From a virus (taxonomy: Duplodnaviria > Caudoviricetes), in the IMG/VR virus record IMGVR_UViG_3300042307_000844: a stretch of DNA of 64,000 nucleotides. One strand, given 5' to 3'. The position numbers and the translations under genes were made by a program. A model generated the notes under the pieces. It ran no database searches. It was given only the letters and a program-made list of their open reading frames with translations, and was not told where the DNA came from. This document shows positions 31,566 through 36,808 of the stretch, one piece after another. Position 1 is the stretch's first letter, and every line of letters begins with the position of its first letter.

Positions 31566-32756
31566 TTAATCATTCCAATATTTCATGAACCTACGGGATG
31601 GATCACCCCATGCTGTATTAAGTGGCTCCAAGAATGCCCCGATATTCTCCGGTCTTTCAAGGAATCTGCTTTCCCCAAGCTTTCTAAGCTCTGGAACCAG
31701 CTTGTAATATTTGGAACGGTTCTTGTAATTTAGAATCGTTTCCACCTTCTGTTCCAAATCGGTAGAATCTGTGAATTTAAGGAAATCGGGAGCATCCTCA
31801 TACGTCACCATATCCTGCACCATGCAAGGAATACCCAAACAAGCTCCCTCGATGTATTTGATATCGGATTTTGATCTGTTGAATGGTATGTCCTTCAAGG
31901 GCGCAAGAAGCAATTGGGGATTCAAAGAAGCGATGAATTTAGGGTAATCCATCAAAGATTGCCAAGGGTGGAATTCAATCTCCTTGTTATTAACATAAGG
32001 ATGAAGGGGAGGGGGATAAGCACCAATGAAAATAAACTGATACTTGTGGCGATTATCAATGATGAATTTCAGAACATGGGAGAAATCATCCTGTTGTCCC
32101 GTGACATTCTTCACATCAAAGTGCGCTCCCGATCCTGAATAAAGGATGCGTGGTTTCTTTTTATTTCTATCAAAATTCTGGATGACCTTACCATAATTAT
32201 AGTGATGTCCAATCCACCATTCGGGGGGGAAATTGGGGACTACTGAAGTCTTCTGTTGTCCCGTCTTCTCGATGAAAAGATCACGCATGTATTTACATGT
32301 CACTGTCACCTCATCCGCCATGTTCATCATGTCCACACAGTTCTGACGAATCTCATCGGAAGCAAATGCATGTTTATATGAATTATAATCAGGAATCTCT
32401 TCGTGGAATACCACATCATCCACCTCATAGACAATCTTAAATCCGCATTCGGGTTGGATGCTCTTGAGGAATTTGAAGAACTCCTTCTGTTGAGTGGAAC
32501 ACTGACGTTGCAGCTTGATGGTTTTTACATCCTGATACCAATCCTTGTTGAGAACCATTTTGGTGATTGTGGTGGAGTCTCCCAATCCGCACATATTGAT
32601 GTGATTCTCACTCCATCCTATACGATATTGACCACAACCTCCCCTGTCGGCGGCAAAGTTTAGATAAGTATTACCCCTTTTAGGGGGTTCTTGAGTGGGG
32701 GTTTTTACCGAATAGGGATTCTTAGGAAAAGGACTGCTGAATGGCTGAACAAACAT
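31566..32756 (-). CDS. Glycosyltransferase (GT-B-like)
   Basis: 'GCGQYRI', 'YEVDD', 'ADEVTVT', 'APLKDIPFNRSKSDIKYIE'. Confidence 0.8.
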   Translation of the reverse strand: MFVQPFSSPFPKNPYSVKTPTQEPPKRGNTYLNFAADRGGCGQYRIGWSENHINMCGLGDSTTITKMVLNKDWYQDVKTIKLQRQCSTQQKEFFKFLKSIQPECGFKIVYEVDDVVFHEEIPDYNSYKHAFASDEIRQNCVDMMNMADEVTVTCKYMRDLFIEKTGQQKTSVVPNFPPEWWIGHHYNYGKVIQNFDRNKKKPRILYSGSGAHFDVKNVTGQQDDFSHVLKFIIDNRHKYQFIFIGAYPPPLHPYVNNKEIEFHPWQSLMDYPKFIASLNPQLLLAPLKDIPFNRSKSDIKYIEGACLGIPCMVQDMVTYEDAPDFLKFTDSTDLEQKVETILNYKNRSKYYKLVPELRKLGESRFLERPENIGAFLEPLNTAWGDPSRRFMKYWND

Positions 32757-32785
32757 GTAGAGATTTATCCATATTTATACATTTG

Positions 32786-33658
32786 TCAATTGTTTATTCT
32801 TCTAGTAATCCCACCTTCTTTTTCAAGTTCAATAATTGATCCCGTGACTTGTTTCAATATTTCCTTTCTATGGGAAATTGCATAAACAGCCAAATCGTTC
32901 TTTTCAATTCTTTTTTTGACGAGTTCTACCAATAAATCAAACCCCCTCTCATCAAACGCCGCGTCAAAAACCTCATCTATCCATTCCACGTTAGATGACA
33001 CTCCTGAAATCTTCCTTTTCAAATCCTTGAATGCCCATGCACACGCGAGATCGACAGTTCTGCGTTCTCCACCGCTCAGATTCCAGTAAGAAATTTCCTT
33101 GCCCTTGTCATTGGAAAGCTGTTCATCAAAGTATTCATCGAATTTACAACGAATGGACATACCAAGATCATTAATATATTGCTGGATACTTGCGTTCATC
33201 ATGGAAAGGAGTCTCTTCACCACAAAGCTACGGACACCTTCTTCTCCCAGAACGAATTTACACACCTCATAATCTTCCGATTTCTGCTTGAGCAATAGGA
33301 AATTATCACGTTCCGTGTCATATCTCTCCTGCGTCTTGATGATATTCTCCTCAAAAGCTGGTTTGGGTAATTCATCCAACTTCAAATTATCCAGAGATTC
33401 CTTGTATTGTTTGAGACTAATTTCCAGACCTTCCAATTTCTGCTTGGTGACTTTAGCTTCGTTGATTTGGTCTTGAAATTCAGCTACCTTTTGTTGAACC
33501 TTTTCTTTTTTGGAATGAAATTGGGATTTATCTTCCTTCAATTTATCAATTTCCTCAACAATATTATCCAATTCGGATTGATATTGCTCCTTCATTTTCT
33601 CCAGATGTTCCACATGTGTATGGGGAATTTCTTGAAGGCACTTGTCACATTTAATCAT
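32786..33658 (-). CDS. gp46: gp46 (Rad50/SbcC-like) C-terminal half
   Basis: Begins at the zinc hook 'CDKC'; signature 'LSGGE', Walker B 'IDEVFD', and 'ISH'. Confidence 0.92.
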   Translation of the reverse strand: MIKCDKCLQEIPHTHVEHLEKMKEQYQSELDNIVEEIDKLKEDKSQFHSKKEKVQQKVAEFQDQINEAKVTKQKLEGLEISLKQYKESLDNLKLDELPKPAFEENIIKTQERYDTERDNFLLLKQKSEDYEVCKFVLGEEGVRSFVVKRLLSMMNASIQQYINDLGMSIRCKFDEYFDEQLSNDKGKEISYWNLSGGERRTVDLACAWAFKDLKRKISGVSSNVEWIDEVFDAAFDERGFDLLVELVKKRIEKNDLAVYAISHRKEILKQVTGSIIELEKEGGITRRINN

Positions 33659-33959
33659 TTTTCAAAATTTCGTTTAAATCTTTTCTCTCCGTTTTGCATA
33701 TAGCAAAAACACGATCAATCATTCTATTAGCGTTAGGTAACAATTTATAGGTTTTAAATTTATTCAACAAATCATATAATTTAGACATTCTAATATAATC
33801 ACCATCAGATTTTTCATTATCTAAAACATTTAGAAAATCTTCAATAGATGTCAACTTACCCCAATCCAATGAATAAGGAATTTGTGTAAAATGAGATTGA
33901 TGGTTTATCCAGTGTTCAACCCTACTTTTTTCAATAACGAATATTGGTTGTTTTTTCAT
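33651..33959 (-). CDS. Unknown 102-aa ORF inserted inside gp46
   Basis: Overlaps the stop of the N-half and the start of the C-half; more AT-rich than the flanks. Confidence 0.7.
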   Translation of the reverse strand: MKKQPIFVIEKSRVEHWINHQSHFTQIPYSLDWGKLTSIEDFLNVLDNEKSDGDYIRMSKLYDLLNKFKTYKLLPNANRMIDRVFAICKTERKDLNEILKND

Positions 33960-34873
33960 ATCACTTTCTCAATTTGTTCAATTTCTTTCACCTTCAGCTT
34001 CCTCAAAGTCTCCTTGGAAGAGATTTCGTTATTCACATGACCGATCTTTCCATCCAGCTTTCTCCAAGCATCATCCCACTTCTCTTTCTCCGTTTGGATG
34101 GTAGAAATATCCATAATAGATGTTTTAGCAATCTTTTCAGATGTTTCATCAATCTTTTCCTGAATTTCTTTGCGCTTTTGATCAAGAATCGCTTCCCGCT
34201 CTTGGACTTTCTTCAAATAATCTTCTTGCTGCTTGTTTAGGGTTTCCAATGTGTTATTGATTTCTTCCAACTTGGCAGAAGAAATGTTCATCTCCCCTTT
34301 ATTATCACGAATCAAAGTCTTCAATTCGTTGCTCATCTTACCAAAGACTTCCAGAGAGAAAATGTCATTGATGAACTTGCGCTTCTCTTCAGGTTTCTTT
34401 GCCATGAATGGGATGTTATCCGAAAGAGATAAAATATCACAACTACGACAAATCACAGGATTGGAACCGATCAAATCACAGATGAATTTGTCGGTGTTGG
34501 CAATGGAATCCTTGGTGATGTCTTCCTCGCATCTCAGAAGCGTCACAGTGCTTGGTTTGACTTGCCGCTTTATCGTGTATGTCTGAACGTCTTGCTCCGT
34601 CTCTACGTCGAACGTAAGCTCAATGGCACCCTTTCCTTTGGTGATGTTGTTGATGATGAAATCCTTTTTAATTTCACGGATGGTTTTACCGAATAATGCG
34701 AAATAGAAAAGTTCGGCCATAACTGATTTTCCAATACCGTTCACACGATCTGGATTATCAATATTCCTACCAGTGATCAGATTAAATCCTGATTGGAAGT
34801 CAACCGATATTTGGTCATTTCCCACACTGAGGAAATTTTGACCTTTTAAATTTTTATAAATTATTCGTCTCAT
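33956..34873 (-). CDS. gp46: gp46 (Rad50/SbcC-like) N-terminal half
   Basis: 'NFLSVGN', Walker A 'NGIGKS', 'LFGKTIR', then a coiled coil ending at ...IEKVI*. Confidence 0.92.
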   Translation of the reverse strand: MRRIIYKNLKGQNFLSVGNDQISVDFQSGFNLITGRNIDNPDRVNGIGKSVMAELFYFALFGKTIREIKKDFIINNITKGKGAIELTFDVETEQDVQTYTIKRQVKPSTVTLLRCEEDITKDSIANTDKFICDLIGSNPVICRSCDILSLSDNIPFMAKKPEEKRKFINDIFSLEVFGKMSNELKTLIRDNKGEMNISSAKLEEINNTLETLNKQQEDYLKKVQEREAILDQKRKEIQEKIDETSEKIAKTSIMDISTIQTEKEKWDDAWRKLDGKIGHVNNEISSKETLRKLKVKEIEQIEKVI

Positions 34874-34882
34874 ATTATTTTA

Positions 34883-35083
34883 TCATCCGCATTGTTTCAT
34901 TTTTTGGATAACTTCTTTATCAATCTCTTCTTGAATAATATCACGAAATATTTGCATTTCAATTGAATTGAACGCTTCATCATATTCTTCCTGTGTGTAA
35001 TCCTTATACCACCTACCAGTGTGGTCTTCATACACCCGAATATAACCATCCTTTACGGGAAATTCCTCATCTACACTTTTCAT
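34883..35083 (-). CDS. Hypothetical protein
   Basis: Packed ORF between gp47 and gp46. Confidence 0.5.
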   Translation of the reverse strand: MKSVDEEFPVKDGYIRVYEDHTGRWYKDYTQEEYDEAFNSIEMQIFRDIIQEEIDKEVIQKMKQCG

Positions 35084-36086
35084 ACAATTCGTCGTTGATT
35101 TTTTTAACTCTTACCAATTTATCTGGTTCTAAATTCAATTGTTCATAGAACTCGTCAAACATTCCCACAATATCAATGGAATCCACCTGTTCAACATCCC
35201 CGATTGTCTTGGTTGCCACGTTGTATTCCGTTGTGAGGCGGAATGGAGCAAAGTTGGACAGGTAAATCTTTAACTTCTCCACCTTATCATCATCCATCTC
35301 CTTGTCAATGATCAGCTTTACGATGTTTCCTTCCACATCCTCCGCTTTGTAGTCCTTAATCTTGGACAGGGGAATTTTGATAAATTCTGGAGACACCGTA
35401 TTCTTCACGAATTCCACCGAATCATCTTCCAGATTCAGAATGTGATAGCCCTTATCATCTCCGCAATCGTTGAAATCGTGGGGAAAGGTATTGCCAATAT
35501 AGCGGATTGTTCCCTCATTGTATTTCTTGATACTCTTAGTATGGAAATGACCAGACCAAACGTTGGTTGTTCGGGATGCTAGGAAATCCATAACTTGGAA
35601 TCCATGATCACAAACCTTGTAATTGTTCATCTGAAATGATTGAATTTCAAAGTGTCCAAAGATGTGATCAAATTTACCTTCCGGCAATTCATGGTTCCAT
35701 GGAACGAATAGCAATTTCTTACCAAACGCATCAAATTCCAAATTCTGGTCAATGATGGTGATGTTATCATGACCCTTGAGGAATCCCAAGCTATGGACAT
35801 CGGAACGGTTCTTGTAGAACGCATCGTGGTTGCCAATCACCATAAAGAGGTTGAAATTCTTGAATTTGGCGATCAATTCGGATGCAACGTGAATTGTCTG
35901 AACGGAAATCTCCGAACGGTTGTGGAAGAAATCACCAAGGAAAAAGATGTCTGAAATCTTCTTTTTCTTTAAATCAGCGACGATCCAATCAGCCCATTTT
36001 AAGGCTATCTCATGCCACTCCGTCGAATTTCCATATAGACCCAAATGAAGGTCTGAAAATAATGCTACTTTATTTTTCTTTATCAT
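35067..36086 (-). CDS. gp47: gp47 (Mre11/SbcD-like) nuclease
   Basis: 'SDLHLG', 'GDFFH', 'GNHD', 'GHFE', 'GHFH'. Start taken at MIKKNK (36086). Confidence 0.93.
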   Translation of the reverse strand: MIKKNKVALFSDLHLGLYGNSTEWHEIALKWADWIVADLKKKKISDIFFLGDFFHNRSEISVQTIHVASELIAKFKNFNLFMVIGNHDAFYKNRSDVHSLGFLKGHDNITIIDQNLEFDAFGKKLLFVPWNHELPEGKFDHIFGHFEIQSFQMNNYKVCDHGFQVMDFLASRTTNVWSGHFHTKSIKKYNEGTIRYIGNTFPHDFNDCGDDKGYHILNLEDDSVEFVKNTVSPEFIKIPLSKIKDYKAEDVEGNIVKLIIDKEMDDDKVEKLKIYLSNFAPFRLTTEYNVATKTIGDVEQVDSIDIVGMFDEFYEQLNLEPDKLVRVKKINDELYEKCR

Positions 36087-36378
36087 ATTCTTTTGCTGTT
36101 TCATTAAGCACATCTCCAATATTTCGGAAAAAACTTTCAATGTGGTAGTTATCTCTCCACATCATATCTCGTCCAAAAGACGGTGTATATTGATCAATAA
36201 TTTTAGCAGATTTCTGCTGAACCCTGTCGAGATAATCCTTTCTCACTTCGTTCAATAATTCATCCTTGTCGTATTCTGATCGAATCAATCCTTCCACTTT
36301 TTCAATCAACAATCTCTGATCAAGAGATGCTTGCGATTTAATTTGTTGTAAGTTCATGCTATTCGTCATCATACTCAT
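36070..36378 (-). CDS. Hypothetical protein
   Basis: Packed ORF. Confidence 0.55.
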   Translation of the reverse strand: MSMMTNSMNLQQIKSQASLDQRLLIEKVEGLIRSEYDKDELLNEVRKDYLDRVQQKSAKIIDQYTPSFGRDMMWRDNYHIESFFRNIGDVLNETAKEYDKEK

Positions 36379-36808
36379 CTCCCTCCAAATTCGGTTTCAC
36401 ATATACATGTCCCATGGAATCCGGCCCACTCATGCTTTCCATATACACCATCTCCTTGTAATCCTCCAGACCCTTGTGTTGACCGTTTTCCTTCTTGATG
36501 CGGTTACAGAAAGCGTTCCAAGCAATGCGGTTGAAATAGGAAAATGGGTTGTATTCCGATTCGATGTTATAGAGCTTCTTTTCCAAAGCTGCATACATTT
36601 TCAACACCGCATCCCCGACCATTTCCTGTTTCCAAGACTTGGAATAACGGATGAAATTGATCTTGTATGACAATCCCTCCGCAATATTCATCAAATGGAC
36701 ACCCAATTCATCCAAATTCTCCCCCGTTTCATAATACTCAACCAATTGCTGTTTGAAGAGCTTGGAATTGACATAATGGGGTTTCTTAGCGTTTTTGTTT
36801 TCCGTCAT
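36359..36808 (-). CDS. gp55: Late-transcription sigma factor (T4 gp55-like)
   Basis: 'HYVNS', 'EMVGDA', and 'NPFSYFNRIAWNAF..RIKKE'. Confidence 0.92.
   Translation of the reverse strand: MTENKNAKKPHYVNSKLFKQQLVEYYETGENLDELGVHLMNIAEGLSYKINFIRYSKSWKQEMVGDAVLKMYAALEKKLYNIESEYNPFSYFNRIAWNAFCNRIKKENGQHKGLEDYKEMVYMESMSGPDSMGHVYVKPNLEGDEYDDE

Follow-up and report, generated by a model that had tools for sequence, protein, structure and literature searches.

A phage gp46 gene in two pieces, broken shortly ahead of the zinc hook around a probable slot for interchangeable small genes

Can a Rad50-like phage protein still work when its gene is cut at the zinc hook, and what is the DNA that lies in the cut? 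The question is raised by gp46 of a T4-like phage from lake water, in a 64,000-nucleotide (nt) stretch of the IMG/VR virus record IMGVR_UViG_3300042307_000844 (hereafter the window, positions in which serve as coordinates throughout). Here the gene consists of two open reading frames (ORFs), gp46N and gp46C, separated by a third that encodes a protein of 102 amino acids (aa). We think it likely that the two ORFs make a functional two-chain gp46, a case of a gene in pieces, and that the internal gap is a slot for cargo genes. An initial annotation of this DNA had considered such a two-chain enzyme alongside several other readings.

The genes of the locus lie head to tail on the minus strand in the order gp47, a 66-aa ORF, gp46N, the 102-aa ORF and gp46C. 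The split itself is composed as follows:

33956-34873, minus strand: gp46N, 305 aa, with the Walker A head lobe and the ascending coiled coil, ending ..KEIEQIEKVI-stop.
33956-33964, minus strand: left junction GTGATATGA, where the gp46N stop TGA overlaps the cargo ATG as ATGA.
33651-33959, minus strand: cargo ORF 'A', 102 aa, small and mostly helical, between gp46N and gp46C.
33647-33661, minus strand: right junction AAAATGATTAAATGT, an 8-nt overlap between the end of the cargo ORF, with its stop, and the beginning of gp46C.
33638-33649, minus strand: CDKC zinc-hook motif, residues 4-7 of gp46C, aligning with the CxxC of contiguous relatives.
32786-33658, minus strand: gp46C, 290 aa, with the hook, the descending coiled coil and the C-terminal ATPase lobe; matches phrog_77.

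Judging from profile matches, the two ORFs cover complementary parts of one protein family. gp46N matches AAA_23 (E 6.6e-13) and positions 293-562 of the SbcC-like profile phrog_77 (E 3.8e-41), gp46C matches positions 629-951 of the same profile (E 7e-41), and SMC_N is found among the matches of the halves too. Walker A (NGIGKS, 34724-34741) lies in gp46N, and the signature LSGGERR, Walker B VEWIDEVFD and H-loop ISHR lie in gp46C; all gp46 ATPase motifs are intact across the two halves. gp46C opens MIK-CDKC, which puts the break three codons ahead of the first hook cysteine. With both ATPase lobes, a predicted antiparallel coiled coil with the CxxC at its apex and an adjoining gp47 gene, gp46 here is a split member of the Rad50/SbcC/gp46 family, in which a stop, a 102-aa gene and a new start between two ORFs take the place of the single fold-back polypeptide. 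The initial annotation had placed the split at the zinc hook and called the insert start/stop-coupled on both sides, and the ORFs with their ATGA and 8-nt overlaps bear it out.

The split arrangement is real and no artefact of assembly. The stretch is present in full in 24 lake-water metagenome runs from 2018-2024, and both junctions are bridged with 0 mismatches by contigs from three of the runs (X1, X3 and X15; X numbers denote runs). A 636-nt bridging contig at a depth of ~92 covers the whole insert. The record itself is a virus contig of 177,639 bp, estimated to be 87% complete, in which gp46C is present once and no second gp46 is found.

Selection points to a working protein. Among split alleles, the ratio of non-synonymous to synonymous substitutions per site (dN/dS) is 0.06-0.13 for gp46N and 0.07-0.15 for gp46C, at dS of 0.8-2.4. 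Because dN/dS stays at 0.06-0.15 over such distances, the break must have lasted through much synonymous divergence while the protein remained constrained. Structure prediction of the gp46N-gp46C complex gave an interaction prediction score from aligned errors (ipSAE) of 0.79 in three runs, compared to 0.00 for the best of three controls, and a mark of 0.79 is reached by 51 of 78 solved complexes and by two of 108 mismatched pairs; because solved Rad50 structures exist, the score is best read as Rad50 likeness rather than as proof that the pair binds. The three runs share at least 90% of their contacts, with a partner predicted local distance difference test score (pLDDT) of 75-81, and the predicted contacts join the head lobes of the two halves and pair N 155-241 with C 81-150 in an antiparallel coiled coil of heptad spacing. 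The initial annotation had named such a prediction as a check on its two-chain gp46, reassembled via the antiparallel coiled coil, and both the predicted complex and dN/dS support that idea. Genes in pieces in the general sense have whole relatives, selection on the pieces and reassembly; gp46 shows the first two, with contiguous alleles of 596 aa and a dN/dS of ~0.1, and is predicted to show the third.

The stop codon within a normally single gene would also fit a gp46 that is simply broken, be it a pseudogene or an assembly artefact. We regard this as exceedingly unlikely, however: the arrangement recurs in independent runs over several years and in ~45 protein clusters, and a dN/dS of ~0.1, the complete set of motifs and the absence of another gp46 copy contradict a pseudogene. 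The initial annotation had entertained a different escape, a spliced or excising element in a cassette between TGAT repeats. In full form, this would make the insert a separate mobile element with TGAT as its target-site duplication, removed at the DNA, RNA or protein level to leave a single-chain gp46. The observations behind it hold as far as they go, in that TGAT does occur at 33654-57 and 33960-63, 306 nt apart, and deletion of the interval is in frame (..EKVIKCDKC..), but no natural allele reads so. TGAT is found ~9.6 times per kb per strand in the window (about once per 100 nt), both copies arise from start/stop overlaps, and the left copy depends on a GTG valine codon, which is GTA or GTT in L001, L002/3 and L005, relatives with the same or a similar junction layout (L numbers denote loci of relatives). 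The left junction of relatives reads GTAATATGA, GTTATATGA, GTAACAAAATGA and similar, with TGAT unconserved. The repeat is no more than chance. Natural contiguous alleles, 596 aa long, read ..KEIDKFSSVEDGIQCDKC.. and not EKVIKCDKC; split and whole alleles are homologous up to GAAATTGA from the left and, from the right, as far as the first Cys codon, and between these limits the whole alleles have a different 31-nt segment. The empty-site pattern predicted by the initial annotation had 0 matches in IMG/VR, the rejoined product expected under splicing or excision being GTGATTAAATGT.

The features of a removable element were likewise absent. Rfam gave no match at E <= 1 and no group I or II intron structure over 32600-35100, a search that detects the intein in the relatives P0049 and P0050 turned up no Hint/PF14890 domain, whether in the insert or at the termini of gp46N and gp46C, and no DNA contig contained a joint across the insert. 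Nor is there a conserved direct repeat or a recombinase, as a transposable element with target-site duplication would have, and the 306-nt interval is filled by an ORF. We therefore hold removal of the insert to be very improbable and largely refuted already. Still less credence is due to a ribosomal hop of ~306 nt as in T4 gene 60, from an ATA-TGA take-off to an ATT landing, even though an Ile codon does stand right before the stop and another is in frame further on. ATA at the take-off does not match ATT at the landing, the two being read by different tRNAs, and the last sense codon is ATA or AAA among relatives. The junction RNAs fold worse than shuffled sequences (z +1.2 and +2.2), with no take-off hairpin (z = +1.2), and gaps of ~210 to ~1050 nt hold genes under purifying selection.

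A relative with a second break bears on the same issue. In L067:3674-7224 (also L068, L060 and L061), gp46 is in three pieces. The first break lies inside Walker A (..NGIGK / S..), where residues 1-49 are followed by an atypically short N-intein of 28 aa; a 362-aa endonuclease-like ORF with repeated YW..G..EE.S motifs stands between the intein halves, and a 123-aa C-intein (PF14890, ending ..SHN/S) is fused to residues 50-305, followed by a 69-aa cargo ORF and gp46C. No intein is present at the hook break of L067 or L060/61. Because the same lineage apparently splices at the Walker A break and has nothing of the kind at the hook, we infer that the hook break needs no covalent repair. With an atypically split intein at one break and the other left unhealed, this three-piece gene lets a break that depends on protein splicing be compared directly with one that can do without it.

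The break is common to many relatives, in which the N-half ends KEIEQI[ED]KV.. and the C-half starts M(..)KCDKC. What lies in the gap differs:

Content A, 102 aa: the window, L001-3 and L043.
Content A plus the 87-aa ORF I: L063/64.
Content B, 108 aa: L006/7.
Content C, 69-72 aa: L060/61, and fused in frame to gp46C in L005.
Content D, 89 aa: L021/22.
Content E, 69 aa: L023/24 and L067.
Content F1 plus F2, 76 and 155 aa: L057.
Content G1, G2 and G3, 75, 180 and 91 aa: L058/59.

There are thus at least eight gap contents drawn from ten ORF families, with one to three ORFs in a gap of ~210 to ~1050 nt, and an all-against-all BLASTP comparison of the families found similarity only between F2 and G3. 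Since the split is shared by many relatives that carry other inserts, the 102-aa insert did not create the break. The initial annotation had the insert splitting gp46, and had itself named relatives split here without an insert as evidence against this; such evidence exists in part, in that the relatives are split around different ORFs.

Traces of exchange are seen at the junctions. The right-junction core ATGATTAAATGY is common to gaps with cargo A, B, C and I, and cargo types D and E have a slightly different C-half start. In L063 and L064 the core is duplicated around the extra ORF: the 87-aa ORF that follows cargo A (L063:572-845, also in L064) opens MIKCD, a copy of codons 1-5 of gp46C, and the 14 nt ATGATTAAATGYGA of that start stand on both sides of it. 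This duplication reads as the footprint of a cassette inserted by recombination at the coupling sequence. In L005 (4915-5991), cargo C (69 aa) has lost its stop codon and reads on in frame into gp46C, the two together forming an ORF of 358 aa; cargo C in L060/61 retains its own stop.

Some cargo families also reside elsewhere. In L020 and L062, family A has gp47 on one side and a contiguous gp46 on the other; it is found just upstream of gp47 in L050 and L052-54 and, as a distant member in L066, in an unrelated neighbourhood far from gp46/47. In L014, a contiguous gp46 has family F2/G3 downstream of it. Cargo genes are ordinary small phage genes that are also found outside the gap.

The 102-aa protein of the window belongs to a family with ten close homologues and 34 representative clusters. 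The profile search proposed for it returned no family in Pfam, PHROGs or a PDB profile search, and tblastn of the ORF against phages gave no match. Its AlphaFold2 model (pLDDT 82) had no significant fold match, and fold searches with Foldseek (PDB, AFDB and BFVD), VIA-align wide and ESM Atlas features and shape yielded generic helical bundles only, with a best Z of 5.9. Cargo A is constrained, with a dN/dS of 0.08-0.32. The initial suggestion of a selfish element does not suit this ORF, which has no nuclease or recombinase signature and whose family is also present in ordinary slots between genes around gp47/gp46. The dS between the window and L002 is 0.41 for cargo A, compared to 0.81 and 1.05 for the flanking gp46 halves, a hint, in a small sample, of a more recent exchange of the cassette than of the DNA around it.

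A single lake sample contains both split and whole gp46 alleles. In X15, the end of a minor contig fits the whole allele at a depth of ~7, compared to ~92 for the split allele, and loose contig ends at window position 33978 in X15 and X25 fit the contiguous allele (..DKFSSVEDGIQ..). A size-restricted search of public data found ~45 distinct clusters of split N-halves, 305-310 aa, all ending KEIEQI[ED]KV.., and a whole-allele query returned 206 (E <= 1e-80), of which ~50 share >=70% identity. Split and whole forms are accordingly about equally common in the close clade, with the whole form dominant further out. Searches against cultured phages gave no match to the locus at the DNA level and at most ~30% identity for the halves by tblastn; P-RSM1 and phiAS5, considered as cultured phages with a split gp46, both turned out to have contiguous genes. 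Scans of IMG/VR and Joint Genome Institute metagenomes with junction patterns returned mostly chance matches (L025, L027, L041-42, L044-46, L048-49) and a single new split locus, L043.

How did the break come to be so widespread? The gp46 proteins of L021 and L023 are only 53-60% identical to that of the window overall, compared to 80-83% over the last 30 residues of the N-half and 97% over the first 30 residues of the C-half; equally diverged whole alleles (L020 and L050) reach 17-27% and 47-67% in the same blocks. Where residues are identical, the codon is also the same in 62-69% of flank positions versus ~50% elsewhere (pooled Fisher p = 0.003). From these comparisons we infer a break of single origin that was later passed on by recombination as a module that reaches ~30 codons to either side. 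Among close alleles, protein trees of gp46N and gp46C are poorly resolved and do not separate one split clade from several; in these trees and in the codon comparison, the mis-framed C-half row of L005 is to be disregarded. A bolder proposal, which we put forward tentatively and at somewhat less than even odds, is that the hook-apex break is a horizontally spreading split module, which would turn the middle of an essential and well-expressed repair gene into a safe-harbour slot, with its cargo of small phage genes captured and exchanged via the coupling sequences, and would persist beside the whole gene as a balanced polymorphism.

The break might owe its beginning to a free-standing homing endonuclease gene that settled in the hook, in the manner of mobE in nrdA and of mobA in gene 39/60, and was later lost or replaced by small ORFs, with endonucleases near gp46 still driving co-conversion of the split module. 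The horizontally shared look of the junction flanks suits this origin, as do the HNH and GIY-YIG ORFs near gp46 in relatives and the analogy of gene 43 in Aeromonas phages, an already split gene that was then invaded (PMC2988022). Directly after gp46C, the split-bearing relatives L005, L021 and L060/61 carry ORFs of 337-382 aa with several helix-turn-helix (HTH) motifs and DUF7487 (L005:6017-7030, L021:4456-5604, L060:3289-4302). DUF7487 has weak similarity to TnsA-like endonucleases (PD-(D/E)xK-type), and the ORF of L005 ends in a gp46-like tail (..ENGITRRVN), as though inserted into the gp46 3' end. The HTH-DUF7487 ORF is a candidate free-standing homing endonuclease, and such ORFs could drive co-conversion of the split module. 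Against this stand the gap ORFs, of which neither the 102-aa ORF nor the nine other families has a nuclease domain; no endonuclease gene adjoins gp46 in the window or occupies the hook gap of any relative examined, and no cleavage site or activity is on record. An endonuclease origin is compatible with a two-chain gp46, yet we rate it as rather unlikely. We give less weight again to a role for the 102-aa protein within the Mre11/Rad50-like machine, as a partner that might, for instance, cap or regulate it at hook or head and would stay beside gp46/47 on that account. Close members of the 102-aa family do always lie near gp47/gp46, at three different positions, and the gene is under purifying selection and translationally coupled on both sides. 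Other split alleles, however, have unrelated ORFs in its place, many genomes have none, a distant member lies away from gp46/47, and neither fold nor family offers a clue, which makes the idea improbable.

A two-chain gp46 would work as follows. A single polycistronic message would yield the two halves as separate chains, by way of the overlapping stop and start codons, and these would reassemble non-covalently in vivo through the ATPase head and the antiparallel coiled coil before acting with gp47, the break falling at the apex, the turning point of the chain. Between the cistrons, the DNA would behave like any intergenic slot of a T4-type phage, with interchangeable small accessory ORFs that replace one another through recombination at the short conserved coupling sequences. 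Along with ~30 flanking codons per side, the break would have arisen once and moved between diverged phages, so as to coexist with contiguous alleles in the same lake.

Several observations weigh against this account. Part of the complex score may stem from solved Rad50 structures already known to the prediction model, and the predicted contacts leave out the 60-80 residues nearest the hook. No Shine-Dalgarno sequence precedes the cargo ORF or gp46C, and the sole matching metatranscriptome contig (X25) carries the contiguous allele, not the split one. The synonymous signal in the flanks is modest (p = 0.006 for L023 and 0.15 for L021), and the flank identity of divergent split alleles could in part come from stronger constraint on free termini.

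The neighbourhood of the split adds two further features to the list:

35067-36086, minus strand: gp47, an Mre11/SbcD-like nuclease and partner of gp46; an ORF with a likely ATG at 36086.
34883-35083, minus strand: 66-aa ORF in the variable slot between gp47 and gp46N.

The identity of gp47 follows its 339-aa homologues in relatives, which match PF00149 Metallophos. Relatives have different ORFs in the gp47/gp46N slot, for example a member of the 102-aa family in L020 and L062. A scan of 32600-36500 for promoters and terminators found nothing above shuffled expectation. In the window, both the gp47-gp46 slot (34883-35083) and the gp55-gp47 slot (36070-36378) contain small ORFs; in relatives these slots have other occupants, among them an HNH gene (L010:3638-3997), a 236-aa ORF (L011:2273-2983) and a GIY-YIG-like gene (L020:1449-2186). 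The entire gp55-gp47-gp46 block is an insertion hot spot.

Rad50 hooks and coiled coils are thought to pass conformational signals between the hook and the head. A natural gp46 under strong selection, in which the ascending helix is cut from the hook, is a ready-made test of the need for covalent continuity, and the split-module proposal, if true, would amount to a natural demonstration that Rad50 needs no such continuity between its ascending coiled coil and hook. The locus also shows that a hypervariable slot can lie within a core gene, in this case with ten ORF families in eight layouts, and annotation and pangenome pipelines would otherwise take a split gp46 for a broken gene.

We found no paper that describes a split gp46 or a gp46 break at the hook apex, and several known systems invite comparison. 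T4 gene 60 is bypassed by ribosomes over a 50-nt gap with matched take-off and landing codons and a stop after the take-off codon within a hairpin (bioRxiv 10.1101/2022.08.31.505936). gp46 resembles it in having a stop directly after the last sense codon of an interrupted T4-type gene, and differs in its gap of 306 nt, its unmatched codons, the lack of a hairpin and a gap that encodes a conserved protein. Fractured genes combine a split intein with a free-standing homing-endonuclease gene (Dassa et al. 2009, PMC2677866). Like these, gp46 is a fragmented phage gene whose pieces enclose an unrelated ORF, and L067 has the exact layout at the Walker A of its gp46; unlike these, the hook break lacks intein halves and its pieces end and start with ordinary extein sequence, so that no trans-splicing is expected.

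The closest parallel is given by the T4-type genes in pieces, namely nrdA/mobE of Aeh1, gene 39/60/mobA of T4 and gene 43A/43B of the Aeromonas phages 25 and 44RR, where the gap DNA of gene 43 differs among phages (PMC2988022, PMC3045599). Here too an essential replication or repair enzyme is encoded by two cistrons in the T4-type core cluster, the pieces must rejoin non-covalently and near relatives have the whole gene. The gp46 gap is set apart by its site at the hook apex, by the absence of a homing-endonuclease gene of the mobE/mobA kind between the pieces, by at least eight alternative contents and by the coexistence of split and whole alleles in one lake population. Finally, when compared to Rad50, SbcC and T4 gp46 with their partners Mre11, SbcD and gp47, the window retains all motifs, a gp47-like phosphoesterase gene upstream and halves that match phrog_77; unlike them, its gp46 is made of two chains, cut three residues ahead of the hook cysteines, so that the ascending helix is not covalently tied to the hook.

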